Source of the DNA: Lentisphaeria bacterium | GTDB taxonomy: Bacteria > Verrucomicrobiota > Lentisphaeria > JABSQK01 > JAWLHB01 | Direction: 5' to 3' | Assembly: GCA_041690595.1 (NCBI GenBank) | Contig: JAWLHB010000001.1 | Location: 62,001-126,000 of the forward strand | DNA length: 64,000 nt | Shown: positions 7,930-59,609 of the stretch, piece after piece | How positions within the stretch are numbered: position 1 is the stretch's first letter | How the letters are laid out: each line of letters begins with the position of its first letter | The notes under the pieces: model-generated | Seen by the model: only the letters and a program-made list of their open reading frames with translations | Database searches by the model: none | Told to the model about the DNA's origin: nothing | Translations under genes and position numbers: made by a program

Positions 7930-7972
7930 TTGCAGTGAGTTGTCTACTGTTGTACACTAATAATGTACAACA
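7930..7972 (+). promoter_or_regulatory. Sigma70-like promoter overlapped by a palindromic operator, upstream of GntR
   Basis: TTGCAG(7930-7935)-17 bp-TACACT(7953-7958); perfect inverted repeat TGTTGTACA(7948-7956)-N7-TGTACAACA(7964-7972). Confidence 0.65.
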
Positions 7973-7987
7973 CATCAGGAGTGCACG

Positions 7988-9067
7988 GTGAGCGGACGAA
8001 ACGGAGTGTTGAAAACCGAACAGGTGCGAAGCTACATCAGCGAACTGGTGCAGCAGCTTGGGAAATCCGGGCGGCTTCCCAGCGAGCATGAGCTGTGCCG
8101 AGTATGCCAGGTTAGCCGCGGAACGATCGGCAAGGTTATTGGCGAGCTGGTGGCAGAAGGCTTCCTGTTCCGCATTCAGGGAAAAGGCACCTTCGTGGCG
8201 GAACATGCGGCGCAGGCGCATGCGGCGCCGAGGCCACGGCAACAAGGGCGGGTGCTGATTGTCTACAGGCATGAGGCTTCCGGCTGGCACCCTTATTATT
8301 CCGAACGGCTACGTGGTATTGGCGAGCGGCTGGGCGAGGCGGGCTTGGCAATGGAGATGATTCGTGTGGGGGAAGATGTCGTTCAGCCGTTGGCCAGCCG
8401 CGGCGCGGCGCCGGATGTGCTTGGCGTTATCTCCTTTCATGTGGCTGACGCCTGGTTGCCGCGATTGCGCGAACGGTTCGCGAAGCCGATCGTGACGACG
8501 TATTCGCCTGGCGAATCGGTGGCGGCCGGCGCCGCGGTGGTACTGGAGTGCCGCGTTGCCATGCGCCAGCTGGCTCGGCGTCTGGCGGAAGATGGTCATC
8601 GGGATCTGCTGCTGATCACTGCCCACGACGATATTGCCGCCTTTTTCAGTACCGTCATGCCGTCGGGCACCAGAATCTGCCTGGCGCATGCGGGGCAGAC
8701 GGCTGAGCGTGGCTACCAGGCCATGGAGCGCTACTACGACCCCTCCATCACCGCCGTCTATGTAGATGACGATGTGGTGGCAAGGGGGGTGGTGCGCTAT
8801 ATCCTGGAGAACGGGATTTCGGTGCCGGGGGATCTCTCGCTGGCCGCGAAAATCAACAAGGGGGTTGAACTGATGGCGCCGGGACGTGTAAGCGCTATCG
8901 AGATCGATGCCTACAAACTAGGAACACTGGCAGCCGCGACGTTGCTGGAAATGCTGGCGGGCGACATGCGCGCTGGCAACTCCGTGACCGTGGAGTCGCC
9001 ATTTATCGACAACGGCTCACTCGGCCCGGCGAATCGGGCGCGAGTCACAATCGGAGGTGTAGCATGA
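7988..9067 (+). CDS. GntR-family regulator with LacI/periplasmic-binding-fold effector domain
   Basis: wHTH '[19 protein letters not shown]...RIQGKGTFV'; C-terminal '[10 protein letters not shown]'; RBS AGGAG, GTG start. Confidence 0.9.
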
Positions 9068-9690
9068 GTACGCGCAAGCATGGTTTCACGCTGATCGAGC
9101 TGCTGGTGGTTATTGCGATAATTGCTGTACTGGCATCGATGTTGTTGCCTGCATTGTCGCAGGCACGAGACCGCGCCAGGCTGACATCCTGTCTCAATAA
9201 CACAAAGCAGATGGGGCTCGGCTGGTTTGCCTATGCCGATGAGTATGACGACACCATGGTGCCGGACGACTGGACTGGCCCCGGTGGTGATTCCTGGATC
9301 GCCCAGATCGCCCCGTTCGTCAGCGTCGGCACCAGCCTTGGCCGGATCGGCAAATGCCCGCGCCATGATCCTTATCCCAGCATCTCGAAGAGCAGCTACA
9401 GCTACGGCTACAACCGCTACCTCACGCCAACCTACTCCAGCGAGAGGTGGAACCGCCTCGGCCATGTGCTCAATCCACTGACGACCATCGTCATTGCCGA
9501 CCACAACGACCGCGACAACAATCGCTACATCACCAACGGCAATCCGCTCGGCTCGAATTACGGTATCGGCAATCGCCATCGCGCCGGAGCCTCCATCGTC
9601 TTTGCTGACGGACATGCCGCCTGGCACCTCGCGGCGCAGGTGCAGGCCACGACCGCCTCCGGCGACAGCTGGTTCAAGATCGACGATTGA
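9064..9690 (+). CDS. Prepilin-type N-terminal cleavage/methylation protein, DUF1559 / H-X9-DG family
   Basis: [25 protein letters not shown], '[10 protein letters not shown]', '[14 protein letters not shown]' (H-X9-DG); 4-bp overlap with GntR. Confidence 0.92.
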
Positions 9691-9730
9691 TGGTGATCAG
9701 CCGAGCAGCCGCACGTGCGGGGACTTGATT

Positions 9731-12214: not shown

Positions 12215-12230
12215 TGCAGCGGAGCCTTCC

Positions 12231-13214
12231 ATGATCGTCAGCAGCCAGCCTTGTCTACCCGCTATTCATACTGAATGGATCGAATCGACCGCCGTCTATC
12301 AGGATGAGAGGGTACGCATTTTCCGCTTTGTGGCGCGCGGTGCCGAGGCGGGGCCGACGCTTACGGTTACGGCGGGTCAGCACGGGCGCGAACTCAATGG
12401 CATTGAGGCGGCGCGACGATTGATGCGCCATATCGTGGACCAACCGCTGAGTGGAACCTTGCAGATTTTCCCGATGGTCAATCCTCCTGGCATCGCGGCG
12501 GTCAGCCAGGAGGTGCCGGGCGAGAGCCAAAACCTCAACCGCATCTGGCCGGGTGATGCCGCCGGCACGGTCACGGAGCGAATCGCTGCTGCCGTCGCGC
12601 CATATGTGGCCGGGTCGGATTACCTGATCGACATGCACGGATGGAGCGACTGGTCGGTTTGCGCCATGCTGCTCAGCGCCACCGACGGCAAAGCTGCACT
12701 GGAACTGGCGCAGTCGTTCGGATTGAGCTGCCACTACATCAATCTCAACGGCTTTCAGCCGGGGAACCTCAAGACTTTTGCCAGCCGCAACGGTGTGGTG
12801 CCGGTGGGGGTGGAGCTGACGCCGCAATGGCGGCTCAATCCGCGGCATGTGGATCGCGGTTTTGACGGCCTGCTCGGTTCCTTACGTCATCTGGGCATGT
12901 TGCCGGGCATATCATCTCCGGCGGAGGTGCGCTACTTTTATGACGGCGAGACGGAGCACGTCGATATGATCGCCGAAGCGCCCGGCCTTTATGTGCAGGA
13001 GTCGTCGGCCGGAAAGTGGGTAGATACGGGCGAATTGTTAGGTTATCTTTACGGCCTCGACTCACTTGACCTGCTACGCGAGGTGAGGGCGCCATGCGCG
13101 GGACTGCTGGTCAACAATGGGCCCTGTCTCGCGAGCGGGATTGAATCCAACATTGTCCCCACCGGCGCCATGCTTGCGCAAGTGTGGCAGGCAAGGAGAA
13201 TCACCAATGATTAA
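12231..13214 (+). CDS. Succinylglutamate desuccinylase/aspartoacylase family (M14 zinc hydrolase)
   Basis: 'AGQHGRELNG' (HxxE), 'NLNRIWPG', 'IDMHG', and a C-terminal barrel-sandwich 'VRAPCAGLL'. Confidence 0.85.
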   Translation: MIVSSQPCLPAIHTEWIESTAVYQDERVRIFRFVARGAEAGPTLTVTAGQHGRELNGIEAARRLMRHIVDQPLSGTLQIFPMVNPPGIAAVSQEVPGESQNLNRIWPGDAAGTVTERIAAAVAPYVAGSDYLIDMHGWSDWSVCAMLLSATDGKAALELAQSFGLSCHYINLNGFQPGNLKTFASRNGVVPVGVELTPQWRLNPRHVDRGFDGLLGSLRHLGMLPGISSPAEVRYFYDGETEHVDMIAEAPGLYVQESSAGKWVDTGELLGYLYGLDSLDLLREVRAPCAGLLVNNGPCLASGIESNIVPTGAMLAQVWQARRITND

Positions 13215-15909
13215 GGCCATCATACTCCTCATGACCCTCTTCTCCGCCCTGAGTCTATTTGGCAACGAGTGGCAGACCATCGTCCTCGACGGCAGCTCGC
13301 TCGATCCGTGTACGGAAGCTGACCATGTGAACGTGGTGCAGGGGGCGGGCCCTGACGGCGGGGCAGCCATCGTCTTTGATAACGATGCGGGCTCCACCGG
13401 TTATCTCGAAGTGGATCTCGCCAAGCTCGGCATCGACCCAGCCGGCTATGACCAGCTTCGCTTCGACCTCTATCTGGAGAACGCACTGGTCAATATCCAT
13501 ACGGTGCTCTGGGGATGGTCAGACGATGAGACGGTTCGCAGCTGGTACTTCAAGCGGGAGCCGCGCATCAACGCGTGGGACCATGTTGTCTACAGTCTGG
13601 AGCTCGATGACGATGGGAGCGACAACCACCACACGGGACCGCGACGACTGCTCGCCTTCCGCTTTCAGGCGGACAAGAACTACCCGCTGCCTGCAGGCGA
13701 ACGCGCCATTGCCCGCATTGCCAATGTGCGGCTGGTGACGGCGCCGGTGACGCTCACGCTCGACCCGAGTCAGGTGCGCCTGGCGGAACGGGATGGCGCT
13801 TGGGCGATGCATCACCCCTTGGTGCTCCGCAATCAGACGGACAAACCGCTGACTGCCCGGCTGGAGGTGCTGCCTGAAACCCTGGCAGCGTTCACGCCGG
13901 ATCCGGCGGTGAAGAGCGTGTCGCTGAGCCCCGCCGGCAGCGTAACGGTGACCATGACGCTGCGCTGTACCGCCGAGGCCGCGGAGAAGTTGCCCCCTGG
14001 CATCGTCGAGCGCGCCGGCATCGTCGCCATCGTGCCCGAGCTTTCCGGCTTTCGCGCCGTCACGGTGCGCGGGTATCGGCCGCAAGATCTCTTCGGCATG
14101 ACGCCCCCCAGGCTCAGCCGCGACTGGCGGAATCTGGTTTCCGAAATCGAGCCAAGCCGAATGGAGAAACTGCGTACGCGTCTCGACTGGCGCTATGCTG
14201 CTCAGGATGTGAGTGTGCTGCCACGCTACTCTGATCACTTTCGCTGCAAGACGTGCAAGTTCCGCCTGGACGCTCGCAATCTCACCACCTACTACTGCCA
14301 TAACAAAGAGTGCACGGCGTTCCAGCAGGAGTTCACCGTGACCCAAGAGGAGCCGCTCTTCGCCTCGTACCTGGGCATCTACCACACGCAGAATGCGGAG
14401 CTGGCGCGCGATCTGGCTGCCGCCCACGTACAGAGCGGCGACCCAGCCTTTGCGGAGACGGCAATCCGTATCCTCACCACCTACGCCAACGTCCTGCCCG
14501 ACCTGCCGATGGTCTCCGCGCTGAGTACCGGCTACCATTCGCGTTTGACCAGTGCCGTGCTCTTTGAGAAGGAGATCCTCGAACCTTTCGCCGAAGCTGT
14601 GCTCTTGCTGCAGCATCTGGATGATTTGCCCCAGGAGTTGGTGCGGCGAGATTTGCTCACACCGCTCCTGCACGAGGTCAACCTGCATTACTATGGTACC
14701 TCCGCCGGACAGGTGGGCATCCTCAAGGCTCAGTTCAAGGCGGCCATCGCGGCGGATCAGCCGTGGTATCTGGCTGACGCCCTTGGCGGCGATGCCGGGG
14801 TACAGACCATTCTCGCGCGTACCTTTACCCGCGATGGCATCGGCGTGGAAGGAGGCGCCTATGCGCTGGTTGCCGCGGACAGGATCGGGGACCTGGCCGA
14901 CTTCCTTGCCAGTGTCGGCGTGCAGCTCGACCGCGAGCGGCTGGCGAAAATCAAGCGCCACACCAGCGCCATGTTCGACCGGCGAGAACCGGAAGACTCG
15001 CTTGTCCTGCCCGACACCGGTTTGACGATTCTGGTTACCGGCGATGGCGAGGGGCGCCGCAAGCTGACCGTCAATTGGGGCAGCAGTCGCGGCCGAGCAG
15101 AGTATGACCAGCTCAGCTACGAGGTCGATGACCTTCACGGCCCGTTGATCGACCAGGTGGGCCGTATCGCCTACGGCAACGAGATGAGCTTTCTGATGTA
15201 TACGACACTTGCTCACAACGTGCCCGTGGTCGACGAACAGAACATCACCGTCGAGCCCCTCCGGCAGCTGGCGTTCCTGAGCAAGGATAGTTTCGCCGCA
15301 TGCCTGTTGAGCGACAGCGAAGCGACTCCCGCTTATCCGGGTGTCCGCCTCCAGCGCGCATTCGTGCAGAGCGGCCCCTACCTGCTCGTGCTGGACCGCA
15401 TCCAGTCGGTTCGTCCGGTGACGGTCGACTTGCCCTTCTACGTATCCGGCGCGCTCGAGTTGAAAGAGCCTGCCTCGCCGCGCCCGGAAGCACTGGGCGA
15501 AAGCGATGCCTATCGTCTCGTCCACGACATGCGGCAGACGGGCAGCCTCGAGCGTGTGCAGGCAACATGGAGTGGTGCCGGTAAGTTGCCCAGCACCGCG
15601 GAGGTGACGGTGGTGAGCAGCATGCCCTTCGCCGCCATTGCCGGTCGCATCCCGGCTGGATGGACCGGCAAGATTCGCGACCTGCTGGTGGTTCGCCAGC
15701 AGCTCCACGGCGTGGTCACCACGGCCACGCTCTACACGATCTGGCGCGGCGCCGATGCTCCCGGCACGGCACGCGTCGCCGCCGATGCTCCCGGCACGGC
15801 ACGCGTCGCCGCCGATGGCGACGGCTGGTTGCTGGAGCTACCGGAAACAACCTACCACATCGCCATCGCGCCCGATTCGCCGACGCCCCTGCTCATCATG
15901 CCACGATAA
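13207..15909 (+). CDS. Secreted heparinase II/III-like (polysaccharide lyase-like) multidomain protein
   Basis: Signal peptide; N-terminal beta-sandwich region; helical region 'GDPAFAETAIRILTTYA', 'DGIGVEGGAY'; Hep II/III-type 'TTLAHNVPVVDEQN'. Confidence 0.6.
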   Translation: MIKAIILLMTLFSALSLFGNEWQTIVLDGSSLDPCTEADHVNVVQGAGPDGGAAIVFDNDAGSTGYLEVDLAKLGIDPAGYDQLRFDLYLENALVNIHTVLWGWSDDETVRSWYFKREPRINAWDHVVYSLELDDDGSDNHHTGPRRLLAFRFQADKNYPLPAGERAIARIANVRLVTAPVTLTLDPSQVRLAERDGAWAMHHPLVLRNQTDKPLTARLEVLPETLAAFTPDPAVKSVSLSPAGSVTVTMTLRCTAEAAEKLPPGIVERAGIVAIVPELSGFRAVTVRGYRPQDLFGMTPPRLSRDWRNLVSEIEPSRMEKLRTRLDWRYAAQDVSVLPRYSDHFRCKTCKFRLDARNLTTYYCHNKECTAFQQEFTVTQEEPLFASYLGIYHTQNAELARDLAAAHVQSGDPAFAETAIRILTTYANVLPDLPMVSALSTGYHSRLTSAVLFEKEILEPFAEAVLLLQHLDDLPQELVRRDLLTPLLHEVNLHYYGTSAGQVGILKAQFKAAIAADQPWYLADALGGDAGVQTILARTFTRDGIGVEGGAYALVAADRIGDLADFLASVGVQLDRERLAKIKRHTSAMFDRREPEDSLVLPDTGLTILVTGDGEGRRKLTVNWGSSRGRAEYDQLSYEVDDLHGPLIDQVGRIAYGNEMSFLMYTTLAHNVPVVDEQNITVEPLRQLAFLSKDSFAACLLSDSEATPAYPGVRLQRAFVQSGPYLLVLDRIQSVRPVTVDLPFYVSGALELKEPASPRPEALGESDAYRLVHDMRQTGSLERVQATWSGAGKLPSTAEVTVVSSMPFAAIAGRIPAGWTGKIRDLLVVRQQLHGVVTTATLYTIWRGADAPGTARVAADAPGTARVAADGDGWLLELPETTYHIAIAPDSPTPLLIMPR
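15751..15817 (+). repeat. Perfect 30-bp tandem duplication inside a CDS
   Basis: GCCGATGCTCCCGGCACGGCACGCGTCGCC x2 plus GCCGATG, encoding ADAPGTARVA twice. Confidence 0.95.
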
Positions 15910-15928
15910 GCATGAGCCGTGGCGCGCG

Positions 15929-17842: not shown

Positions 17843-17865
17843 GACTGCCCTTCTCCTGTTGTGAG

Positions 17866-18993: not shown

Positions 18994-19046
18994 GGGGGAT
19001 ACCTGCTGTTGTCAATTGCGATTGAGCCACGATGATACTTTTGTCT

Positions 19047-19074
19047 ACGGTACCCAAAAGCACAGCGGTGTCAA
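19047..19074 (-). promoter_or_regulatory. Putative sigma70 promoter of the leftward GntR
   Basis: Minus strand TTGACA(19074-19069)-16 bp-TACCGT(19052-19047), with an AT-rich tract upstream. Confidence 0.4.
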
Positions 19075-19171: not shown

Positions 19172-19186
19172 AGGAACAGGAGCTTT

Positions 19187-20254
19187 ATGAGCAAGACATC
19201 TCGATCCATGCCGAAGTATGAGCAGCTTGCGACAACGCTGAGGGCTGATCTGCTTGCGGGGCGCTGGCAGAGCGGCGAGCAATTGCCGGCGGAGCGCCAG
19301 TTGGCGGAGGAGTACGGGATGTCGCACATGACCGTCAACAAGGCAGTGGCAAGCCTGGTGGCCAAGGGCATGTTGAGGCGCCGTGGTCGGGCGACCTACA
19401 TCGCGCCGCCGGAAGACGATCGTTTCTCGCGAGGAGTCGGTGCGGTCTTCGATCTCGACCCTATGAGATCGCCGCAGCTGTTACGTCCCCTGCTGACAGC
19501 GCTGTCGCGGGAGCGACGCCTGCCGCTGCTGATCGACATACTCGATCCGCGTCGCGTTGGGCAACAGCTTCGCGAGCTTTGCCTGGAAGGTGTGACGACA
19601 TTCCTGGTGGACGCATTCAGCTATTTCCCCTTCGAGATGCTGGGGGAGCTGTCGCCGTATCCGCGCATGATATTCCTTCATCGCTACGAGTCGCACCAGC
19701 GTTACCCTGGGACGCGGATTTTGCTGGACTATCGGGAGGTGGGGCGCATGGCGGCACGTTGCGTGCTGGAGGCGGGAAGGCTTCGTCCGGCCATCATAGG
19801 ATTCGAGCGTCAGCCCCTGTGGACGTCGCAGCTATTTTACGAAGGAGCCATGGAAGTATTGGATGCGGCCGGAGTTGCTCTGCATGCCGAGTGGCTGACG
19901 GTCCAACTGGAGGACGACAGTTGCGTGCGGTTCCTTCGCCAACGCCCGCGCGTGGACAGTATCATCACGGTGAACGATTTTCGGCTGGTTCCCTTTGTGC
20001 AGGCAGCCGCGAAGACAGGCGTTCGTATACCGGAGGATCTGGTGCTGGTTGGGGCCGGCAATACCTCCCATGCCGAGGCGTGGGACCTTACCTCGATCTG
20101 TCTTCAGCCGGAGACCATGGTCGAACGCGCCATGGACGCACTCGACAGTGGAATGGAAGTGGATGAGCTTCTTCCACCGATACTCATTGCCCGGGCAAGC
20201 TGTCCGTGGACCAATCACAAGAAAGAACGGAGTGACCACAATGAAAGCACATAG
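19187..20254 (+). CDS. GntR-family regulator with LacI-like effector domain
   Basis: 'PKYEQLA...[25 protein letters not shown]'; '[12 protein letters not shown]', 'LTSI'; RBS AGGAG before ATG 19187. Confidence 0.92.
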
Positions 20255-21085
20255 ACATTTCACGTTGATCGAGCTGCTGGTCGTCGTGGCGATAATCGCC
20301 ATTCTGGCTTCGATGCTGCTCCCGGCATTGAGCCGCGCACGTGAGAAGGGCCGCCAGGGCAGTTGCATGGGGAACATGCGCCAAGTGGGGTTCTCGTTCA
20401 CCATGTATCTTGAAGAGCAGGACGATTTTCTGCCCTATGCACGCATGCCCGCGGCTTGGCCGGAAGCGACCTTCTGGTATCAGCAGCTCGAAGCACAGAA
20501 GAGCGAAGCCTGGCTGCCTAAATGGGATTCTCATTACTACTGCCCGACGTACATGGGCACACTGCGTTCCCGGTGGCCCGGCGACAAGGTAAGACCGACG
20601 TGGACAGCGCGTTATTACTTGGGCTATGCCTACCCGATGCATGACTGGTCCGTTGGCGGGGGGGCCAATCTCTCGATGCCGCCCTGGAAAATCAATCAAT
20701 CGCTCAAACCCAGCGACACTACGCTGCTGGCGGAACAGGATCTGACGAGTCACCTGCCCGCGGTTCCCAATGGCATCTACGGCGTGACGCTCGTGCGGCA
20801 CATCGAGGGGCTAAACATTCTTTTTATCGATGGCCATGTTCAACCCTTCAACGATGGTCCTATGCTGGCGGAGCAGTGGAAGAATACAAATGGCCGGCGG
20901 CATGAGTTTCCGTTCAACCAATACGCTCACAGTAATCGCTGAAGTTGCCCTGTCCGTGGACAATCACAAGAAATAACATGGGAGTGGCCACAATGAAAGC
21001 GCATAGACATTTCACCTTGATCGAGCTGCTGGTCGTCGTGGCGATAATCGCCATTTTGGCTTCGATGCTGCTGCCGGCATTGAGC
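20200..21085 (+). repeat. Direct repeat of ~135 bp (20200-20333 and 20950-21085): leader/RBS plus pilin N-terminus; a more diverged third copy lies at ~21694-21815
   Basis: CTGTCCGTGGAC(C)AATCACAAGAAA.AAC..GGAGTG.CCACA-ATG precedes both genes; the first 93 coding nt differ at 4 positions. Confidence 0.9.
20241..20942 (+). CDS. DUF1559 / H-X9-DG prepilin-like protein (array gene 1)
   Basis: [25 protein letters not shown]; '[14 protein letters not shown]'. Confidence 0.92.
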
Positions 21086-21685
21086 AAGGCGCGCGAGAAA
21101 GCTCGCACAACTGCCTGTACCAGTCAAATCAAGCAGATGGGCATGGGGTTGATCCAGTACTGCGAGGCCAATGAAGATAGTTTTCCACCCTTGCGTCCGA
21201 TATCTTCGCTGGTGAGCTACAATGAACACGCGTGGTGGTTCACGCTCATGGCCGAATATGTCGGCGTTACCCCGTCGAGTGTCAATGCCTACTGGTATCC
21301 GGCGATTGACACCGTCATGACCTGCCCCGCCTTTGCCCAGCGCGGAAAACCCATCAGCCGCTGGTACAGCATGGGTTACGGTCTGCCACACTACGCAAAT
21401 GGTCTGGGAGGCAATCCTGGCCAGAACGGCCCCCCCAGGCTTCTGCGCGATGTCATCGACGCGGAGGCTGTGACCATGCTTGCCGATGTTGACGGGAACG
21501 GCCTGAAAATGGTCGGCAGTTGGCCGATCGACATGATGGGCAACCATGGCGATCAGCTTGGCACCAACATCGTCTTCGTCGATGGTCACGTCGAGTACTT
21601 TCCCGATGGTCGCTACCTCTACGAGAACTTCGTGAAGGTAAACAACACCAAGTATCCGATCAACCGCGATCTCAAAGCCGATTAA
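20993..21685 (+). CDS. DUF1559 / H-X9-DG prepilin-like protein (array gene 2)
   Basis: Same N-terminus as gene 1; '[16 protein letters not shown]' (H-X11-DG variant). Confidence 0.92.
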
Positions 21686-21722: not shown

Positions 21723-22424
21723 ATGAAAGCGCACAGACATTTCACCTTGATCGAATTGCTGGTCGTCGTGGCGATAATAGCCGTTCTGGCGTCGATGCTG
21801 CTGCCGGCATTGAGCCGGGCGCGCGAGAAGGGCCGCCAGGGCAGCTGCATGGGGAACATGCGGCAGGTGGGGATGTCGTTCGTCATGTATCTGGAAGAGC
21901 AAAACGATTTTCTGCCGCATGCACGCATGCCGGCGGCCTGGCCCGAAGCGACCTTCTGGTTTCAGCAGCTCGAATCACAGCCGAGTGAAGCTTGGTTACC
22001 TGAATGGAATTCTCATTACTACTGCCCGACCTACATGGGAACGCTGCGTTCCCGGTACCCGGGGGACAAGGTGCGGCCGACGTGGACGGCGCGCTGGGCA
22101 CTTGGTTATGCCTACCCGATGTACGACTGGGCCGTTGGTGGTGGAGGTACTCTCACGATGCCGCCTTGGAAAATCAACCAGGCGCTCAAGCCCAGCGATA
22201 CCACGCTGCTGGCGGAACAGGATCTGGCGAGTCACCTGGCCTCGGTTCCCAGCGGCATCAACGGCGTGACGCTCGTGCGGCACATCGAGGGGCTCAACAT
22301 TCTCTTTATCGACGGCCGTGTTCAGGCCTTTAACGATGGTCCGAGGTTGGCGGCCCAGTGGAAAAATACAAATGGTCGGCGGCATGAGTTTCCGTTCAAC
22401 CAATATGCTAACAGTAATCGCTGA
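21723..22424 (+). CDS. DUF1559 / H-X9-DG prepilin-like protein (array gene 3; paralog of gene 1)
   Basis: Same length as gene 1 (233 aa); 29 substitutions by my manual count (~88% identity). Confidence 0.92.
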   Translation: MKAHRHFTLIELLVVVAIIAVLASMLLPALSRAREKGRQGSCMGNMRQVGMSFVMYLEEQNDFLPHARMPAAWPEATFWFQQLESQPSEAWLPEWNSHYYCPTYMGTLRSRYPGDKVRPTWTARWALGYAYPMYDWAVGGGGTLTMPPWKINQALKPSDTTLLAEQDLASHLASVPSGINGVTLVRHIEGLNILFIDGRVQAFNDGPRLAAQWKNTNGRRHEFPFNQYANSNR

Positions 22425-34866: not shown

Positions 34867-34882
34867 GATGAAGCATGCTCCT

Positions 34883-45857: not shown

Positions 45858-45862
45858 TCACG

Positions 45863-46732: not shown

Positions 46733-46819
46733 GATGCCAGTTCCTGAGAGGGTTGACGTCCCTCCACTATCATAGCATCAAGGTGAAAGCCGGCCCAAAC
46801 CGTGGGCGTCTGCTCGTCT

Positions 46820-48676
46820 TCATGGTTCGCTTCTGCCGCTGGCCAGGTAGCGCAGGAGCCCCGCAAGCAACGCCGGCCAGCCTTCCGATTCCCAGCAGGG
46901 GGCCGGCTGATCTCCCAGCGGGGCGCCGAGGATCGTCACTACGCGACCTTCGCCGGCCGTTCCAGCCACGGCAACGGGGCGCTCGCCGGCGGTCATCCAG
47001 ATGGTTGATCCGGGGCGCGCGGTGACCTCATGCACCCATGGAACCGTTCCCAGTGCCTGGTGAGTGCCGAGTGCCGACGCGCCCTCTTCGGTCAGGTGAA
47101 GGGGCGGATCCTTAGTAAGCTTGCGAAGGTCGAACAGTCCGCCGATCTGCACCGGCAGGAGGGGCTCGATGGGCGATTCTGCCCACGCGCCGGCGCCGTA
47201 GGCATAGGTTCCGCCCAGCACCAGCAGTCCACCCCCTTTTTGCACAAACTCCGCCAACATCCGCCGCATGTCCGGTGTCAGCGGATCCTGGGGGAAATCG
47301 CTCATGACCACGACGTCGAATCCCAGCAGTTCGTCCATGGTGGCGGGGAACCAACTGACCCGATGGCCGATCCAGTATTTCCATGAATGATCACCCTTTC
47401 GCACGGCCTCGCCTCCCCATGCCTGGCGAACGATTGGCGCTACGCGCCAGGCGTAGCCGAAGAGCCCTTCGAGGAGCAGGACGCGTGGAGCATGGCGCGT
47501 CGGTCGTGCGGCCTGCCAGACTCCCAGGCGATAGTCGGCCAACTCGTCCATGATCTGTTGTTCCCCGGCAAAGGAGGGCAAATCCTGGCGCAAAGCTTCC
47601 AATCGCGGTGCCAGATCCGTGAGGCGGGTTCGCAGATTGGTCACTGCCGGCTCACCCGCGTCGCCCAGTGCAGCAGCGAGATTGTCGAGTTCGCGCACCT
47701 GTTCCTCTGCGTTGAAACTGGTGATGGCGGTCGGCAGCCAGGAGGCATGACGCAGGTGTTCGAGCAGAGCTGGTGCCTGTTGCGTAACGATGGCCTCCGC
47801 ATCCGTGGTTGTCTTGCCGGTGAAATCCCACAGCGCGAAACGGGCACGTCCGGAAGTTACCGCCAGATTCACCTTCACCATGACTGGATAGTCGGTAATC
47901 TTCACCATGGTCTGATCCTCGGGCTCGATGGCGAGTTCGACATCGTCCGGCAGGATGGCCAGAGCACACGGACCGCTGGGGTTGTAGAAGGGTGCTCGTT
48001 CGAGGAGGGTATCCTGGTAGATCTGCCACCACTCTTCGGGAAGGTCCAGCGCAACGTCATTCACCTGCCGGATATCCCTTACGGCCGTGATCATGCGTCG
48101 GTTGAGCACTTCCTGCTTCGCTACAGAGGCGGGGTTGGGTCGATAGCCCTGCGGATAGCAGACAAACTCGATCGCCAGCGCCTTCAGCTCCGGTCTTCCT
48201 TCCCAACGCACCTCCATCAGCAGCTTGTCACTCTCCGCTTCCAGCAGAAAGCGTACCCGGGCATCGACCAGCGGATGCTGCCATGAGAAGGTGATGAGCC
48301 CCTGCTCTCCCGTCTCGTCGATGCTGACCACGACATCCCGATCCTGGATAGTCCGGCCATTGGCGGTGATGCCGAAGAAGGCACTGTGGAACCAGTTGGC
48401 TTCGGTGGGGAGTGGCATGCCGACATGGGAGTTGATCGTTCTCCATGCACCATCCTCGCCGCGCTGCTGCTGGATGCTGGTCTTGAGACCGTACTGCTGC
48501 GTCATGCCCGAAATGCGAAAGAGCCGGCTGCCTGAGCGCCGTTCCGGTTTGTCGGCAGGATGAAAGGTCGAGCCATCGTCGGTGATGGTCACCGGTGCGG
48601 CAAGACCAAGTGCGGCCGTGAGCAGCAGCAGGATGACGATGCGGCAATGCACGGCGGTCTTCCCCTTTGGTTTCAC
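46820..48676 (-). CDS. Secreted hypothetical protein with C-terminal class-I glutamine-amidotransferase-like domain
   Basis: Signal peptide; 'FDVVVMSD...LAEFVQKGGGLLVLGG..AYGAG..SPIEPLLPV'. Confidence 0.65.
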   Translation of the reverse strand: MKPKGKTAVHCRIVILLLLTAALGLAAPVTITDDGSTFHPADKPERRSGSRLFRISGMTQQYGLKTSIQQQRGEDGAWRTINSHVGMPLPTEANWFHSAFFGITANGRTIQDRDVVVSIDETGEQGLITFSWQHPLVDARVRFLLEAESDKLLMEVRWEGRPELKALAIEFVCYPQGYRPNPASVAKQEVLNRRMITAVRDIRQVNDVALDLPEEWWQIYQDTLLERAPFYNPSGPCALAILPDDVELAIEPEDQTMVKITDYPVMVKVNLAVTSGRARFALWDFTGKTTTDAEAIVTQQAPALLEHLRHASWLPTAITSFNAEEQVRELDNLAAALGDAGEPAVTNLRTRLTDLAPRLEALRQDLPSFAGEQQIMDELADYRLGVWQAARPTRHAPRVLLLEGLFGYAWRVAPIVRQAWGGEAVRKGDHSWKYWIGHRVSWFPATMDELLGFDVVVMSDFPQDPLTPDMRRMLAEFVQKGGGLLVLGGTYAYGAGAWAESPIEPLLPVQIGGLFDLRKLTKDPPLHLTEEGASALGTHQALGTVPWVHEVTARPGSTIWMTAGERPVAVAGTAGEGRVVTILGAPLGDQPAPCWESEGWPALLAGLLRYLASGRSEP

Positions 48677-50415: not shown

Positions 50416-50425
50416 GTGCCATGCC

Positions 50426-51274: not shown

Positions 51275-51419
51275 GGAGACCCCCGTGATTTTCGTTGGGT
51301 GAAAAATCGAAGACCATCAGTCATATCGTCAGCATCCAATAGTAACATAGTCTGCTATTACGCGCCTGCAAACAAATGTCTAATATCGTGAATATCGCGG
51401 CAGGGGCCCGTGATCGCGG

Positions 51420-53687
51420 TCATGCATCGGAGTAGCGAAGGTGTGCTTCGCGCTGAAAAACAGGCCGCGGGGTGATCTCCGCCGAATGGGTCTGGGTGCA
51501 GCGGATGCGCAGTCGCGATGGCTGGACGAGCCGATCGCGCAGGTGGATTTCCCAAGGAAGGAAGCGGCCATAGGCATGGTCGCTGATCAGGTAATCATCG
51601 AGCCACGCATAGCCGAGCATGCCGTCAAAGCGGACCTGCAGGGTGAAGTCCGTGTCGGTATCCGCGATAAGGCTGGGCTCCAGATCGGCCTCGATAATCA
51701 GGTCCTCACCCTCATGTCGCCGCCGCCAGGCGATTTCCGGTTTAGGGCATTCGAGTCGTCCGCTGGCTTTGTACAGGCAGGCGGCTGGATCGTAGCTTTC
51801 AGTCAGTTCGGCAAATGGGCCAGTCAGCTCGGGTCGAGTTGGGGAGAGGAGGTAAAGATGGAAGAGAAAGGTATCCGACTGAAGGAGAAGGTGACCGTCC
51901 GGGCGGCTTTCGAGGATGCGCAGATTGGAGCTGGCGACCAGCTTGCCATGTGGAGATGCCACCTCCCAGACCTCTTCAGCGCGTTCGCCATTCATCAGGA
52001 CATAGCGCATGGGGATGGGCGATGCGAAGGTGACGATCTCCATGCCGTGTCCGGGGATCCCCGCCACGAGAACCGTATTGGGGCTCTCCCAGTGTATCAG
52101 GCTGCCGTGGAGCGTGGTGGTGGGGCAGCTCTCCGGCAGGACAAATCGGCTTTCGACAGTGGCATCGCTGCGCGCCCAGGCGATCAGTTGAATACCATTG
52201 CCGAAAGGGCGTCGGTCGAGGAGGGTGGCGGTGCTGTACTCGAGGAAGTGGTGCGGCGCCAGCTTCACAAAGAAGGGCATAATCTTGTTCTCGCCGGGGG
52301 CCAACTCCATCTGGGTGCGCTTTGGGTACTCCTGGCTCACTTCGCAGGGAATGCCGCGCGGGCAGCTCTCCACGCGAATGTCCCTCTGCCAGGCCGCGCC
52401 GGTGGCGCGAACGTTGCTCATGATCAGGAAGTTGGACTCGCTGAGGTTGAGTCCCTTGTTGATAATGCCGCCGGCTTTGACTTTGCGAACGTGCGGCAGA
52501 GGCGCATCGCTTTGGCGAGCTTCGCTGTGGTAGGCTTCGAAGAGGTCGTCGCCGGAGCTTTCGGCGCCAGGGTGGGGGATGCCATAGCTTGTGGCCTTGG
52601 CCCATGTCTCATGCGGAACGGCAGTGAGGAGCTCTGCTTCGAAGGCGCGCAGAAACCAGCCAAAGCGCTTGATGCGCCCGTAGCTGGAGCGCAGGTTTCC
52701 CGCGACGGTGAACGGGGCCTGAAAGCCATAAATGCGCTGTGGCAGCATGCGCTCGGCGCCGCCATCGGGGTATTCGGCATCATTAAGGACAAACCAGTTG
52801 ATGCCCTTGCACCCTTCGGCGAGATGCTGATAGCCTTGCGCCTCGATCAACTCCGGCGGATAAATTGGTCCCTGAAAGGTATTGGTGTGCCGATAGGGAG
52901 GCCAATCGTAGTAGCGGACGAACATGCCGCTGCCACTCTCGATCGTGATGCGGGGCCGCTGGTGACTCTTCCACCAATCCAGGTTGATCGGTCCCAGGTC
53001 GCCATCGCAGCCGAAGCAGTTGACTGGATACCCGCCGCCGGTGTCCACCAGCGGTAACTCTTCCTTGCCGGGATATGGCTTGTTGATGTCGATGATCGGA
53101 ATATCAATCTCGAAGCGCTGCAGAAAGCGGTTGTAGAAGTGGATGTGTTTGCCGCGTTCTTCCGGATCTTCCGAGCCGCGATGGACATCGTCTCCCTTGC
53201 TGCCGGCGGAACCCAGCTCGTTCTCCATCTGCAGCATGACGATCGGCCCGCCGCGGGTGATCAGCCGGGGGGCGAGGATGGGCAGGATCTTCTCGTACCA
53301 GCGCTCCGACTCCGCCAGATACTCGGGGTCATTCGTGCGCACCTTGTTGCCCAGCTTGTCGAAGAGCCACTGCGGCAGGCCGCCGTTGCGCATTTCGCCA
53401 TGCACGAATGGGCCGATGCGGATGATGACCCACAGCCCTTCCTCTTGCGCGGTATCCAGGTAGGCGCCGACATCCAGATCACCCTGGAAGTTCCACTGGT
53501 CCTCGACGGGTTCATGATACGCCCACGTGCAGTAGAAGGTGATGGTGTTCATGCCGGCGGCCTTCACCTTGCGCATGCGGTCCTGCCACCACCGGCGGCG
53601 CAATTTGGCGTAGTTGAGATCGCCACCGTAGATGAATCTGGGGGTACCATCGATGAGAAGATAGTCTTTGGCAATCTGGATCTGCAT
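51420..53687 (-). CDS. Beta-galactosidase-like glycoside hydrolase, GH35
   Basis: 'KAAGMNTITFYCTWAYHEP', 'RIGPFVHGEMRNGGLPQWL', 'GGPIVMLQMENE'. Confidence 0.88.
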   Translation of the reverse strand: MQIQIAKDYLLIDGTPRFIYGGDLNYAKLRRRWWQDRMRKVKAAGMNTITFYCTWAYHEPVEDQWNFQGDLDVGAYLDTAQEEGLWVIIRIGPFVHGEMRNGGLPQWLFDKLGNKVRTNDPEYLAESERWYEKILPILAPRLITRGGPIVMLQMENELGSAGSKGDDVHRGSEDPEERGKHIHFYNRFLQRFEIDIPIIDINKPYPGKEELPLVDTGGGYPVNCFGCDGDLGPINLDWWKSHQRPRITIESGSGMFVRYYDWPPYRHTNTFQGPIYPPELIEAQGYQHLAEGCKGINWFVLNDAEYPDGGAERMLPQRIYGFQAPFTVAGNLRSSYGRIKRFGWFLRAFEAELLTAVPHETWAKATSYGIPHPGAESSGDDLFEAYHSEARQSDAPLPHVRKVKAGGIINKGLNLSESNFLIMSNVRATGAAWQRDIRVESCPRGIPCEVSQEYPKRTQMELAPGENKIMPFFVKLAPHHFLEYSTATLLDRRPFGNGIQLIAWARSDATVESRFVLPESCPTTTLHGSLIHWESPNTVLVAGIPGHGMEIVTFASPIPMRYVLMNGERAEEVWEVASPHGKLVASSNLRILESRPDGHLLLQSDTFLFHLYLLSPTRPELTGPFAELTESYDPAACLYKASGRLECPKPEIAWRRRHEGEDLIIEADLEPSLIADTDTDFTLQVRFDGMLGYAWLDDYLISDHAYGRFLPWEIHLRDRLVQPSRLRIRCTQTHSAEITPRPVFQREAHLRYSDA

Positions 53688-53698
53688 GCGTGTGCTTG

Positions 53699-56600: not shown

Positions 56601-57358
56601 GCGCCGTCGGCGTCAATGCACTCCATCAGGAAGGCTCGCACGAGGCCAATGGCGTCCGGGAGGAGGCTCTCGTCTACGTCGATTTCACCCTCGACGGCAA
56701 GAGCGGTGATGGCGAGGTTGCTGCCGAAGAGGGCCATCCAGTTGGCGCCGCTAATTCTTCTGCCGGTAACGGACTGGCCCAGGCCGAACCATTCGCGGTC
56801 CATGAGGTCGCGCGTCGGCTGCTGGAGCATGGATGCGAAGATGCGCCGGGCGCTGTTGCGCTGAGGTTCGGTCAGCAGCTCGTGGATCCAGTCATAGGCC
56901 AGAGCATACTCCTGTACCCCCCAGGATTCCTTTGGCTGGAGTTGGTCGTCGGGGGGATTGGCGTCGAGCCAGATGATGAAGGCGTCCACAGCTGTTCTTC
57001 CGGCGGCCGGTTCCCCGGAGAGCTGATAATAAAGAGCAGCCGCGCGAGTGTTCGTGGCGTGATAGCCCCATTGCCCCAAACTATCCTTGGCCAGTTTGTC
57101 ACGCGCCACCTGATCCTGCGCCACCTGGTCGAGTTGCTTGCGCAGAGCCTCTGCTCCACCCCGCAGGTTGGCCAAGAGGGGACGGTATCGTTCTTCTGCT
57201 GCCCGTTCGCGAAGTGCAGGCAATTCCTGTGCGGTGAAGATGAGGCGCGGATGCTCGCCGGGCGGCAGGGGTGGCGTCATATGGTTCATCTGGGCGGTGG
57301 ACAGGCCGGTTGTCAGCAGAATAGCCATTCGTGCCATCCTCCATCCTGATAGCATCAT
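53699..57358 (-). CDS. Large secreted heparinase II/III-like protein, full-length paralog of 22471-26247
   Basis: 'PPLPPGEHPRL', 'AYDWIHELLT', 'DGALYEG', 'GAGHTHADQGNF', 'HNVVHIDD', 'VMAPHDDGDGRTL'. Confidence 0.75.
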   Translation of the reverse strand: MMLSGWRMARMAILLTTGLSTAQMNHMTPPLPPGEHPRLIFTAQELPALRERAAEERYRPLLANLRGGAEALRKQLDQVAQDQVARDKLAKDSLGQWGYHATNTRAAALYYQLSGEPAAGRTAVDAFIIWLDANPPDDQLQPKESWGVQEYALAYDWIHELLTEPQRNSARRIFASMLQQPTRDLMDREWFGLGQSVTGRRISGANWMALFGSNLAITALAVEGEIDVDESLLPDAIGLVRAFLMECIDADGALYEGMEYASGFGTHHLPPLLMALRRRGVDIYSDSHLSQVGNWQTYETLPWGFESFDHNKSIGRFGAGPLLTFNAREYGGLFLWCYQNGAIEEHGILPNEMIGLLNGLPEGAAGSPDDLPPDRWFAARGLVFARDGWGERDAMAMFGVNPVGAGHTHADQGNFLLAANGAYFIADSSAGNYESRDHNVVHIDDIGQGQREAGLDGFIRHVDRNEYALLADADLSLSYGRLLQGGLNGPWWWKEYNPVQRADRRFLFVRGIAGPLLIVVDEIRKDDQPHRYSWLAHTPQRHVVSVSENGFTIAERFGGSYLETLAKGCNATLVARDVPEGIYRGWLLVRSVPSPAGWASNNLSVNGRKIPYNEAYFGRGFHREGWDWLPLKPDRVAEIVHPGGNLRVGLESHSGGRIALAVFTRDPEWEPADLIPEHGGDFVVIGVESLEQGALPWQIGHAPKGILDAHFLGAPLNLSIDRTRTPKTARVELRAERHDIDGRFVCVMAPHDDGDGRTLTRAEGGLVRKSLLGVDTIVSGWDAVPAGTATTDAQVAVISRHADGHLVSYAMAAGSRLADASGELITAQAGTHLLHDGTTLVIRAPAGSRITCRRLQATTLQLNGLTASLPAGDPVVIDVPTPESGWRVAVENEGTIVQLTGGNAPLPRIEAPAAIELRVNGIKRYFTRDGEGLIHPVLQDGVTTIHFRNRITAADLRQYESQRRDGAIHYTLPAVPGRYRVTVGDKVQELVTATDTLPVVVQAETHPATMEIIPMTRPIPAANWLAIGPFAIPGTDGQDMGGDTVRASLTHPLPPEIAIDPSAIIESGGRSLRWVPGDSEEGWRVDGKIVPVAQWSFADRAREAGVNFLPACGVRRGELCYAATIVTSPGEREALLQIGCDFWATAFVNGEEVTSERAKQLSHLDGARFHGDSPMTARIRLKAGANLLLVKCRGGGGSNSFVAYISDPGDLHISPPTPH

Positions 57359-57364
57359 CTGCTT

Positions 57365-58117
57365 TCACTCCCAGTCGGTGTTGAAGGGATAGTCGCTTTG
57401 ATTTGGGGAAGCGCCGGTATCGCCGCGCATCCACTGCGCCAGGAGCGCGGGGCCGTCGTTCATGCTTACGGCATGTCCATCGGCAAAGAGGAAGTTGGTG
57501 CCGCGACCGCCATTGCCGTGGCGGCCCATGCGAACCGGCCAACCGGGGACGACCTGAATGAAGGAGGAGGCGCGCGTGGCGGATTGATACGCTTCGGTGA
57601 GAACCATGGTGGTGTCCGGTGTCTTGATGGCGCCAATACGCGCTGGCGGCTGCATACTGGCTGCCCGGTGGTCGCCACCGACCGCCTTCTTCTTGTTCTG
57701 CCAATAGGTCGGGTAGGAGTAGCCGATATCCCAGCGCCAATTGCCGTGGCCATCCGGCAGTGCGAGGCTGCCGCGGTCATAAGTCGGGCACCAGAATGGC
57801 GTCTTGAACAGCGGAATGAAGCTTGTGCTCATGGCTGCGCCGGCTTCGGGCGCCAGCTTCGCGTACCACCATGTGGATGTCGTATTGGAATCGGGGTCGG
57901 GCCCGCGTGTCCACGGGAAGTGGTCGTCGTTTACATCCTGATAAAGGGAGAAGGCCAGGCCAAGCTGTTTCAGGTTGTTCGTGCAGCTGGTCTGGCGCGC
58001 TTTTTCGCGGGCGCTGCTGAGCGCCGGCAGGAGCATGCTGGCCAGAATGGCGATTATCGCCACGACGACGAGCAGCTCGATCAGGGTGAAAGATGTGGAT
58101 GAAGGTCGACTGGTCAT
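57365..58117 (-). CDS. DUF1559 / H-X9-DG prepilin-like protein
   Basis: [25 protein letters not shown], '[17 protein letters not shown]'; RBS AGGAG. Confidence 0.92.
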
Positions 58118-58152
58118 GGTTGTCTACTCCTTGGTTATGTGTCGGGCAGGGC

Positions 58153-59544
58153 TCAGGAAGCAATGTTGACGGTGCGGGTGGTGAGACGGGCAGCCTCGAT
58201 TTCCTGCCGCAGTTGCAGGCGGACGATGGCTTCGGTGGCGGATTGTTTGCCGTTCAGTACGGCTTCCACTTCCGGAAAGAGCAGGCGGGACTCGGATTGA
58301 CCGGATTGCTCCCGGTTGGCGGGTTTGCTGTGACTGGCAAGGCTGGTGAAGATATCGAGAGGACCAAGTGGACAGTGCCGTTGCGCCATGAGGGCGCGGG
58401 ATTCGGGTCTTGCCGGCAGCAGGTGGTAGCTGTCCGCAAGCTCGTCCTGCCTTTTGTCCGCCGTCAACCACGCGATGGCTTCCCATGCTTCCAGAGGGCG
58501 GGGCGTGTGGGCGGACTGGAAGAGCTCCATGCCCATTTCCAGAACATGGCCATCCGGTTCGCATGGATAGGGCAGGACGCACAGATCCTGATGCCGATTG
58601 CGTTCCAGCAGACCCGGCAGGCCGGAGATGAGGGTAGGCCAGAAAGGGACCACGCCGGAGGCCACACGGTCCAAATTGAAGGGCTCCTGCGGAAAAGTAC
58701 GATCCAGGATACGTTGCAGCAAGGCAACCTGTGCCGAGGTGGGCGAGCGTTTGTTCAGCGGCAGTATTCCGCAACTGGAGAGCAGGTGCGTGGTGAACCA
58801 GTGCATGATGAGCGGCGACTCGCGATCTTGCGTCAGCAGTTGGGTAGCGTCGAGAAACTCGCGCCAACTCCAGCGGGTCGGAACCTGCTTGCCGAGGTAG
58901 AAAGCGACCGTTGGCCGATGTGCCAGCAGGCAAGGCAGGCTGCTGCCATAGGGGAGTCCGTCACCAGATAGCTGTCTCCCCGAGAAGGTCAACGGCTGGG
59001 CCCATCCCTGTTGAACCAACTCCGGGCCGAACCATGATGGAGCCTGCAGGAGATCGACCCCCTCAAGATTCTCCACAATCCGCGACATTGTCCAGTGAGC
59101 GTTCAGGTTCCATGGCACCAGTTCGAGTGAGGCGGAGGGATGTTCTGCGTGAAACGCTTCCGCCCAGCATTCCCAACGGGTCCGGATTCCGACGGCACTG
59201 CCGGGGCAGAGATCCATCAGCATGATGCGAAGGTGATGGTTTGCATCGTCTTGCGGTCGGCTGAAGGCTGCCCGCTCCAGCGGATCCCAAGGTGCATGGT
59301 CCTCGGCCTCACAGCTATCGCCCGGCGACGGGCGAATGTAGCGAATGCGGCCTCCGGGACGCTGGAAAACGCGTTCCGTCTCTTCCAGGTACGCCAAGAC
59401 TGGCCGCAGCGCCACTCGGCTGGTTTTCAGTTCACCCACGAGCTGGCGTTCGGAGGGCAAACGCTCTACCTGCGGACTGTTGAGATAGCGTTTTTCTATC
59501 TCCGCGAGGAGATTCCGTCCAAGGGAGGTAAGTGGGGTCACCAT
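58153..59544 (-). CDS. GntR-family wHTH fused to a solute-binding-protein-like effector domain
   Basis: 'RLPSERQLVGELKTSRVALR'; 'EAFHAEHPSASLELV', 'LPYG', 'WSWREFL', 'EAWEAIAWL' resemble the sugar SBP (type II fold) pattern. Confidence 0.75.
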   Translation of the reverse strand: MVTPLTSLGRNLLAEIEKRYLNSPQVERLPSERQLVGELKTSRVALRPVLAYLEETERVFQRPGGRIRYIRPSPGDSCEAEDHAPWDPLERAAFSRPQDDANHHLRIMLMDLCPGSAVGIRTRWECWAEAFHAEHPSASLELVPWNLNAHWTMSRIVENLEGVDLLQAPSWFGPELVQQGWAQPLTFSGRQLSGDGLPYGSSLPCLLAHRPTVAFYLGKQVPTRWSWREFLDATQLLTQDRESPLIMHWFTTHLLSSCGILPLNKRSPTSAQVALLQRILDRTFPQEPFNLDRVASGVVPFWPTLISGLPGLLERNRHQDLCVLPYPCEPDGHVLEMGMELFQSAHTPRPLEAWEAIAWLTADKRQDELADSYHLLPARPESRALMAQRHCPLGPLDIFTSLASHSKPANREQSGQSESRLLFPEVEAVLNGKQSATEAIVRLQLRQEIEAARLTTRTVNIAS

Positions 59545-59609
59545 GGTATTTGTTCCGTTGGATGATTCGTGCCGATCAAATACCATAAATACCAAGGTGA
59601 CTTTTTCAA
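59543..59609 (-). promoter_or_regulatory. Promoter and triple TGGTATTT operator-like sites upstream of the GntR-SBP gene
   Basis: Minus strand TTGAAA(59609-59604)-16 bp-TATGGT(59587-59582); tandem TGGTATTT x2 over the -10 and a third, inverted copy at the start codon. Confidence 0.6.

Follow-up and report, generated by a model that had tools for sequence, protein, structure and literature searches.

Gene clusters for sugar-polymer degradation that begin with a regulator and a pilin-like gene in a Lentisphaeria genome

What does a pilin-like protein do when its gene lies between a sugar-type regulator and a glycan enzyme? This question is raised by a 64-kb stretch of DNA from a Lentisphaeria bacterium (G000:C1:62001-126000, hereafter the window), for which four arrangements, cassettes (a) to (d), had been proposed from the letters alone. 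Each combines prepilins of the DUF1559 / H-X9-DG family with enzyme-like genes and, in (a) to (c), a GntR regulator. All four were found where the original prediction had placed them (Table 1). It had further suggested that the pilin-like proteins capture glycans, or dock enzymes, on a shared filament in the role that SusD plays in polysaccharide utilization loci (PULs). Here we analysed the cassettes, the family in the whole genome and its homologues in relatives. In this genome, dozens of gene clusters for sugar-polymer degradation start with a regulator and a pilin-like gene, not with outer-membrane transporter genes.

Regulators and glycan enzymes around the pilin genes

The source genome comprises 8.12 Mb on 99 contigs (97% complete, 61.5% G+C), and our own dicodon model predicted 5834 genes. 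Signal peptides were predicted by a hydrophobicity heuristic, which scored 21% of the genes as positive and made evident false calls of both kinds. Noise from gene calls and signal peptides is present in all counts, to the same degree for tests and controls. A scan for the prepilin motif yielded 189 prepilin-like open reading frames (ORFs) with a median length of 243 amino acids (aa). As family pilins we counted 176 proteins (at least 80 bits against the family profile, length 150-399 aa), grouped into 168 runs, and used 2452 size-matched genes as neighbourhood controls. Published reports are cited from their accessible parts.

A genome-wide test of neighbours bore out the expected enrichment of regulators and glycan enzymes around the family pilins. 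A same-strand GntR/LacI-type sensor regulator was located directly upstream of 65 of 167 runs versus 25 of 2421 size-matched genes (odds ratio 61), and directly downstream of 7 of 168 runs only. Large secreted genes directly followed 65 of 168 runs (odds ratio 13), compared to 112 of 2413 size-matched genes and 40 of 471 secreted controls. The full order of regulator, pilin and secreted gene was observed at 36 of 167 runs versus 8 of 2382 controls, and 47 of the 91 GntR-plus-sensor regulators encoded in the genome have a pilin as the next gene. The statement that the prepilin always precedes a secreted enzyme holds throughout the window, but genome-wide at only 70 of 168 runs. Six pilins are encoded in the window, where 1.4 would be expected at genome density.

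We then compared 40 genes drawn from the 91 large genes downstream of pilins outside the window with 40 drawn from 190 large secreted genes that are separated from every pilin by more than 10 genes. Glycan-type Pfam hits were obtained for 23 of the 40 downstream genes (14 explicit, 9 through DUF4838 only) versus 6 of the 40 controls (p 1.5e-4), while 11 genes of either sample had no Pfam hit. The two commonest downstream partners were DUF4838 proteins (14 runs), which have at least 44 paralogues, and GH123_N-like ones (11 runs). All 31 PDB matches of the DUF4838 profile were glycosidases, the best on the N-terminal domain of glycoside hydrolase (GH) family 67. In a non-circular check, we took six seeds of the carbohydrate-active enzyme (CAZyme) type from controls far from pilins; 26 of 40 of their paralogues lay at most five genes from a pilin, versus 606 of 2164. 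We are confident that the cassette represents a genuine unit with a link to glycans.

No transporter, SusC/D, TonB receptor or pilus assembly gene was detected within the four cassettes by domain search, in agreement with the original prediction. Genes with multiple transmembrane segments were also rarer in pilin runs (16 of 610 versus 260 of 5048), and any such gene was present in 11 of 161 runs. A search for SusD (PF07980) in the 97%-complete genome gave no match. Four TonB receptors are encoded genome-wide, each 10-24 genes from the nearest pilin. Across 24 genomes, the densities of pilin candidates and TonB receptors were inversely related (rho -0.72), which we regard as a lead only. Four genomes of family f7 (G016, G020, G024 and G027, 99% complete) gave no TonB receptor match and contain 139-272 DUF1559 candidates; family f5 displays the reverse pattern, with up to 25 TonB receptors and 3-19 candidates.

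The proposed role of SusD is thus supported as far as the scarcity of transporters in these operons and the missing SusD match go, but it is an analogy only: there is no relation in sequence or fold, and no SusC-like partner. As in the SusC/SusD PULs of Bacteroidota, a regulator and exported glycosidases or lyases are clustered in many substrate-specific loci. In contrast to those PULs, the adjacent susC/susD pair is absent, a pilin takes the lead slot, and most loci lack a transporter. The cassettes thus work like a PUL at most and are not members of the SusC/D PULs.

The arrangement is conserved in relatives. PF07596 matches were found in 29 of 30 of them, and the head of the cassette (c) pilin (58117) was matched in 11 of 350 other genomes of the class. 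Among the 14 loci of this subfamily that we fetched from those 11 genomes, a regulator lay directly upstream in 10, which supports the earlier interpretation, and a lyase nearby in 3. Genome G222 displays the same order of regulator, pilin and lyase as cassette (c), with 46% and 48% identity. Homologues of the lyase were detected in 3 of 200 genomes. Three loci include the catalytic part: in two of them the second gene upstream encodes a pilin of another subfamily, and the 11-kb contig of the third has no pilin. In G202:C1, a pilin of the 58117 subfamily is followed by a homologue of the cassette (a) deacylase, which suggests that parts are shuffled between cassettes.

These neighbourhoods bear on the second half of the original proposal, in which the pilins serve as enzyme adaptors. 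A private pseudopilin would recognise the co-encoded enzymes and help to export or display them by type II secretion. The pilin gene indeed mostly comes first, in close coupling with a gene for a large Sec-exported protein, and the genome has type II-like clusters and secretins, as described below. Furthermore, only 5 of 65 downstream partners are lipoproteins and the whole genome encodes just 3 PEP-CTERM tails, which leaves the route of anchoring otherwise unexplained. Pilins in front of the same enzyme family were more alike than expected by chance (1 of 5000 permutations), and the G222 orthologue retains the same lyase. However, the permutation signal stems from a few duplicated cassettes. 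The 58117 subfamily stands beside changing enzymes, and the lyase homologues of two other genomes follow pilins of other subfamilies. No common C-terminal module or sorting tail was found among 95 downstream proteins, the largest group comprising 15, and 199 large secreted proteins are not near pilins (versus 288 that are). The adaptor half of the proposal is weakened by these results, and we consider it unlikely.

Pilin fold, filament machinery and possible roles

All six window pilins carry the N_methyl motif above cut-off (PF07963 and TIGR02532). Five of them match PF07596 at or above cut-off, over the N-terminal part of the profile only, and their homologues are named DUF1559 / H-X9-DG. 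The H-X9-DG spacing is exact in four of the six (x11 and x12 in the other two), and one reaches the cut-off of TIGR04294. Over the 176 paralogues, the H..DG motif retains His in 95%, Asp in 87% and Gly in 86%. Judged by their sequences, the window pilins are members of the DUF1559 family.

An AlphaFold model of the cassette (c) pilin (58117-57365, 104 sequences, predicted local distance difference test score (pLDDT) 87.6) displays a 50-residue helix (12-62), a small beta-sheet and long loops. Its 15 best structural matches were without exception type IV pilins or pseudopilins, led by PilA4 (Z 5.7, root-mean-square deviation 3.4, 122 residues aligned). No lectin or binding-protein fold was among the listed matches, which does not exclude the presence of one. 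The description of these proteins as pilin-like therefore stands: the model has a type IV pilin fold, with Phe+1 and Glu+5 on a long helix and an alpha/beta head. Phe+1, Glu+5 and the entire helix are near invariant over the 176 paralogues, and two cysteines and an H..N..DG motif are conserved. The heads are rich in Trp (3.8% versus 2.1% in secreted proteins) and Tyr (6.5 versus 3.2), with Asn and Gly also high, and they can barely be aligned, as 0.5% of the 15400 paralogue pairs exceed 50 bits.

Such extreme divergence would also be expected if the pilins merely varied the filament surface, for particle attachment or phage escape, or were passengers copied along with regulator-enzyme blocks, with no part in uptake. 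Tandem duplicates exist, for example the 88% identical pair in cassette (b). Type IV pili have been cited as an aid in adhesion to biopolymers in Fimbriiglobus (PMC11131199), and the 74 copies of the family in Rhodopirellula are stress-regulated (PMC2754498). We nevertheless rate adhesion or passenger status as quite improbable, given the fixed slot behind the regulator (65 versus 7 runs, and the same slot in relatives), only 2 visibly truncated ORFs among the 189 with the motif, and the inverse relation to TonB receptors.

The machinery for a filament is encoded elsewhere in the genome, as the original prediction had supposed: peptidase, assembly ATPase, platform protein and secretin are all present. 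We counted 8 full-length PilB/GspE-type ATPases among 20 matches, 15 for the PilC/GspF domain, 6 for secretin and one A24 peptidase. Seven of nine ATPases examined passed the PilT/PilU cut-off, and two GspE/F/G-K clusters and several secretins were identified. A MUL2-like locus (G000:C2:283506-291119) contains Amuc_1102-, 1101- and 1100-like genes and a secretin, with matches below the NCBIfam cut-offs. At C7:125517-133481, a DUF1559 pilin heads an operon of secretin, PilM, two unannotated genes and PilB; its orthologue precedes a secretin in 8 of 24 other genomes, two being cut by contig ends.

Another special member is only 167 aa long (C28:84339). A match to it was present in each of 14 genomes of the order, at E 2e-22 or better in 13, and 7 of 106 genomes outside the order gave a weak one. 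In a 2.0-Mb genome (G004), it is the sole PF07596 match. In six genomes that we viewed it is 58-67% identical, with Gly at -1 kept in five. Genes of the O-antigen-ligase plus tetratricopeptide repeat type are located downstream here and in three of the six. A pilin followed by an O-antigen-ligase-type gene is a layout known from major-pilin loci with pilin glycosylation. By its sequence, canonical leader and context, the short member is a candidate major pilin of this order, with a glycosylation locus. The short-pilin locus (G000:C28:84339-85547) has paralogues at C32:599-2264 and C66:12568-13086, with pilins of 163-172 aa. G000:C46:45981-49490 encodes two secreted proteins in tandem, each of 580 aa, which have a normal signal peptide and a C-terminal part like the short-pilin head; similar fusions also occur in relatives.

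Several further loci touch the machinery. A protein with two tandem PilT domains is encoded at G000:C3:40421-42622, and PilT pairs, in each of which one partner is extended at its N terminus, are found at C4:75894-78481 and C10:77459-80343. Other pseudopilin-like genes form clusters, together with a large PilX-like gene, at C11:176354-181922, C17:80409-88841 and C33:5341-9071; these clusters presumably resemble the Verru_Chthon cassette.

Our computations establish the cassette, its enrichment and conservation, the fold and the machinery. To these we tentatively add, at somewhat short of an even chance, that cassette pilins are locus-specific accessory pilins which capture the glycan of their locus on a shared retractile filament. 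Judging from domain content and gene order, a glycan-derived inducer would switch the GntR/LacI-type regulator and turn the operon on. The prepilin would be processed by the single A24 peptidase, which, to judge from the GspG leaders, would have to accept almost any residue at -1 in this class. The accessory subunit would then join a shared type IVa-like filament, with the computed fold and with machinery encoded elsewhere, in which the short member is probably the major pilin in this order. Variable loops rich in Trp, Tyr, Asn and Gly might bind the target glycan, the weakest step of the scheme. PilT-driven retraction could pull the polymer to the cell surface or, via a secretin, on into the periplasm; there it would be cut by the hydrolases and lyases that are encoded alongside and exported by Sec. 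A broader version is doubtful: in Lentisphaeria, and perhaps in other members of the Planctomycetes-Verrucomicrobia-Chlamydiae (PVC) group, a modular retractile type IV filament would act as a general polysaccharide importer. It would have a shaft of short DUF1559 pilins, up to about 170 inducible receptor paralogues and a relaxed peptidase, and retraction through a secretin would replace TonB-dependent SusC/D.

A number of results weigh against a capture role. Explicit CAZy-type hits alone amount to 14 of 40 versus 6 of 40 (p 0.07), and the significance leans on DUF4838, whose PDB matches cover mostly its N-terminal domain. Paralogues of the GH2, GH29 and GH35 genes of the window are not enriched near pilins (5 of 13). 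The downstream gene is on the opposite strand at 40 of 168 pilin runs, and 102 of 167 have no adjacent same-strand regulator. Structural Z scores of the modelled pilin are all below 8, and Foldseek with this model returned no match at E 0.001. None of 14 genomes of family f6 yielded the secretin-linked pilin, and none of 27 in family f7, the one richest in these pilins, yielded the short member. Over 10 family means, the relation to TonB receptors has a rho of -0.42 (p 0.23), with raw candidate counts used. We also inspected 79 loci of named genomes, found with search profiles built from the source genome and labelled by record titles. Where there was room to look, a regulator was directly upstream in 6 of 18 Lentisphaeria-labelled loci, but in 0 of 35 Verrucomicrobiota- and 0 of 14 Planctomycetota-labelled ones. 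With 6 of 18 against 0 of 49, the tight cassette is established for this class rather than for the family as a whole. In Tuwongella, proteins with N_methyl and SBP_bac_10 domains fractionate with membranes, differently from plain pilins (PMC8567305). Finally, position -1 of the cleavage site is Gly or Ala in 30 of 175 paralogues and in one of the six window pilins; 12 paralogues have Pro there.

With 145 of 175 leaders lacking Gly or Ala, the proteins could be uncleaved binders or sensors of the periplasm. The helix would anchor them in the inner membrane, and the head would hold oligosaccharides or relay an inducer to the regulator. The Tuwongella fractionation fits this idea, the family is termed solute-binding by Pfam and in PMC2754498, and the link to the regulator is tighter than that to the enzyme (odds ratios 61 and 13). 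We consider it improbable nonetheless. GspG itself retains Gly or Ala at -1 in no more than 6 of the 29 genomes of the class, as do 12 of 70 adjoining pseudopilins; the unusual leaders are therefore characteristic of the class and do not exclude processing. Within the family, Gly or Ala is found at -1 in 54 of 54 Verrucomicrobiota- and Planctomycetota-labelled loci versus 2 of 19 Lentisphaeria-labelled ones. Moreover, the near invariance of Phe+1, Glu+5 and the helix exceeds the needs of an anchor, and the modelled fold is that of a pilin, not of a periplasmic binding protein.

Since pseudopilins of type II secretion systems require processing and the GspG leaders are odd too, the prepilin peptidase of the class probably has a relaxed specificity at -1, and the idea that a missing Gly at -1 means no cleavage is weakened by the GspG control. 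The single A24 peptidase (G000:C11:11189-12445, 418 aa) has a long insertion between the halves of its A24 domain, and its nearest named homologues are from 'bacterium F16' and a Lentisphaeria bacterium. Like the leader pattern, these homologues suggest Lentisphaeria as the class of the genome; a 16S search of the assembly found nothing. We rejected the insertion as the cause of the relaxed rule: at 360-390 aa, Verrucomicrobia-named homologues are long as well, although Gly or Ala is kept in that group.

The cassettes of the window

Table 1. Genes and intervals of cassettes (a) to (d), with positions counted from the first letter of the window
Cassette	Feature	Position	Strand	Matches and remarks
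(a)	GntR helix-turn-helix + Peripla_BP_3 sensor regulator	8006..9067	+	PF00392 E 2e-9, PF13377 E 9e-17; ORF open from 7988
(a)	DUF1559 / H-X9-DG prepilin, 208 aa	9064..9690	+	PF07963, PF07596; Gly at -1
(a)	Secreted GH42-like protein, 827 aa	9731..12214	+	PF08532 E 6e-9
(a)	AstE/AspA-type deacylase-like	12231..13214	+	PF24827 E 8e-23; no signal peptide by heuristic
(a)	Secreted 900-aa protein, weak heparinase II/III-like C-terminal match	13207..15909	+	PF07940 E 9e-4, below cut-off
(b)	Second GntR + sensor regulator, divergent from the cassette (b) regulator	18993-17866	-	
(b)	GntR + Peripla_BP_3 regulator	19187..20254	+	Start 19187 or 19208
(b)	Prepilin 1	20241..20942	+	His at -1; 88% identical to prepilin 3
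(b)	Prepilin 2	20993..21685	+	His at -1
(b)	Prepilin 3	21723..22424	+	His at -1
(b)	Secreted heparinase II/III-superfamily lyase-like protein, 1258 aa	22471..26247	+	NF045571 E 3e-6
(c)	GntR helix-turn-helix fused to SBP_bac_8-like sensor	58153..59544	-	Weak PF00392 + PF13416; jackhmmer GntR set
(c)	Prepilin, 250 aa	57365..58117	-	Ser at -1; modelled type IV pilin fold
(c)	Heparinase II/III-superfamily lyase-like protein, 1219 aa	53699..57358	-	Profile matches
(c)	GH35 beta-galactosidase-like	51420..53687	-	PF01301 E 1e-55; no signal peptide by heuristic
(c)/(d)	Gap between cassettes, 145 bp	51275..51419	-	No terminator-like site found on - strand
(d)	Prepilin, 282 aa	50426..51274	-	PF07596 + TIGR04294 above cut-off; Ser at -1
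(d)	Secreted GH66-like protein, 580 aa	48673..50415	-	PF13199
(d)	Secreted protein, C-terminal GATase1-like domain	46820..48676	-	PF07090 E 1e-8; PDB 3rht E 5e-8

The genes of a cassette were said to overlap or to lie within about 50 bp of each other, and we measured gaps from -14 to 50 bp. The fourfold recurrence needs qualification, since all four sites are present but (b) and (c) are relatives of one cassette and not independent: their lyases are 40% and their pilins 35-39% identical. Likewise, (d) lacks an adjacent GntR, as described, but starts 145 bp downstream of the GH35 gene of (c) on the same strand. From this layout, (d) is probably a continuation of (c), and one transcript is possible. 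A scan of 46000-64000 for promoters and terminators gave numbers at chance level only (4 versus 4.2 and 11 versus 11.2). The (a) deacylase and the (c) GH35 protein have no signal peptide by the heuristic and look cytoplasmic. The same heuristic missed a plausible short signal of the lyase-like protein 57358-53699.

The enzymes differ in how firmly they can be named. A family profile of the lyase-like proteins 22471-26247 and 57358-53699 matched heparinase II (E 2e-16) and PL35 (2.7e-16), and oligo-alginate lyases as well. Homology extends over the helical toroid and the beta-sandwich, and the H-x-H-x-D motif region aligns. By these profile matches, both are heparinase II/III-superfamily lyase-like proteins. 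For 50415-48673, a 41-sequence profile matches the GH66 dextranase/CITase family at E 3e-29, in two stretches. Asp297, Asp302 and Glu377 are conserved, and we call the protein GH66-like. The profile of 9731-12214, with only 2 homologues found, matches GH42 at E 5e-4, and a Pfam search detects the trimerisation domain. A low-confidence model (pLDDT 49) resembles GH42/164/167 folds, with the barrel region poorly modelled. We call it GH42-like, on weaker grounds than the other partners. As single queries, neither 9731-12211 nor 13207-15906 gave a PDB sequence match. For 13207-15909, said to be lyase-like, a resemblance is present, but below the Pfam cut-off and with an empty PDB sequence search.

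Other genes surround the cassettes. On the minus strand at 15929-18993, the second GntR-plus-sensor regulator is followed by a gene for 637 aa without a Pfam or NCBIfam match, whose homologues lie near other pilins. At 59622-64000, a URO-D-like gene and two unannotated genes (487 aa and more than 550 aa) lead into cassette (c) on the same minus strand. A second URO-D-like gene is located at 28916-29896, and such genes recur next to pilin loci in relatives. A GH29 fucosidase and a GH2 protein, paired at 31372-36070 (minus strand), have no signal peptides and no neighbouring pilin or regulator.

Related systems and significance

With type IVa pilins and type II pseudopilins (PilA4, EpsG, PilV, PilE, ComP), the family shares the fold, Phe+1/Glu+5 and the machinery in the genome. 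It differs by about 100 extra loop residues, a conserved Cys pair, the H..DG motif, about 180 copies and a non-canonical -1 residue. ComP is a minor pilin that serves as substrate receptor for uptake. In the Sulfolobus bindosome and in Streptococcus sanguinis PilC, a lectin-bearing minor pilin, sugar-binding proteins are sent to a pilus-type structure by a class III signal peptide. Those proteins have an identifiable ABC solute-binding or lectin domain and occur in low numbers per genome, whereas in the present family the variability resides in the pilin head.

The window pilins have the N_methyl leader, the first helix, the C-terminal H..DG and the expansion (176 here) of the DUF1559 / SBP_bac_10 family (PF07596, TIGR04294). 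They depart from it in their fixed order with sugar-type regulators and glycan enzymes, in shorter heads and in the loss of the -1 glycine. These three differences were not found in the literature searched, nor was a description of a regulator-pilin-enzyme cassette, subscription journals and supplements lying outside that search. The family has been listed among the largest (PMC4807772). In Tuwongella, N_methyl plus SBP_bac_10 genes are scattered round the genome and often flanked by genes with signal peptides (PMC8567305), and another report gives 68 paralogues of unknown function, two of them essential (PMC10632474). CAZyme clusters of Planctomycetota are described as not functionally characterised (PMC11131199).

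In Akkermansiaceae, of the same phylum, the pilus locus MUL2 (amuc_1098-1102) ties type IV pilus-related machinery to glycan uptake (PMC13174399). MUL2 is one locus that encodes machinery, whereas the cassettes are scattered in dozens, each a regulator-pilin-enzyme unit that lacks machinery. Pili-like fibres of the planctomycetes Planctopirus and Gemmata bind dextran, with a proposed role in uptake (PMC5394234). They are surface fibres that bind polysaccharide, as proposed for the pilins here, but belong to another phylum. The accessible part of that report identifies no subunit and makes no link to DUF1559. A 2025 review calls the mechanism and players of polysaccharide uptake by planctomycete fibres unknown (PMC12673574).

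In oceans, soils and guts, PVC bacteria play a major part in breaking down complex glycans, and how they capture polysaccharides in the absence of SusC/D is an open question. DUF1559 is one of the largest uncharacterised families of the group, and the cassette gives it a testable role in glycan capture: with a pilin tied to a regulator and enzymes, each pilin can be tested against a predicted class of glycan. Separately, the loss of the -1 glycine rule throughout the class offers a testable point on prepilin peptidases. In addition, the cassette can serve as a marker for PUL-like loci and for new enzyme families among the sampled downstream genes without a Pfam match.

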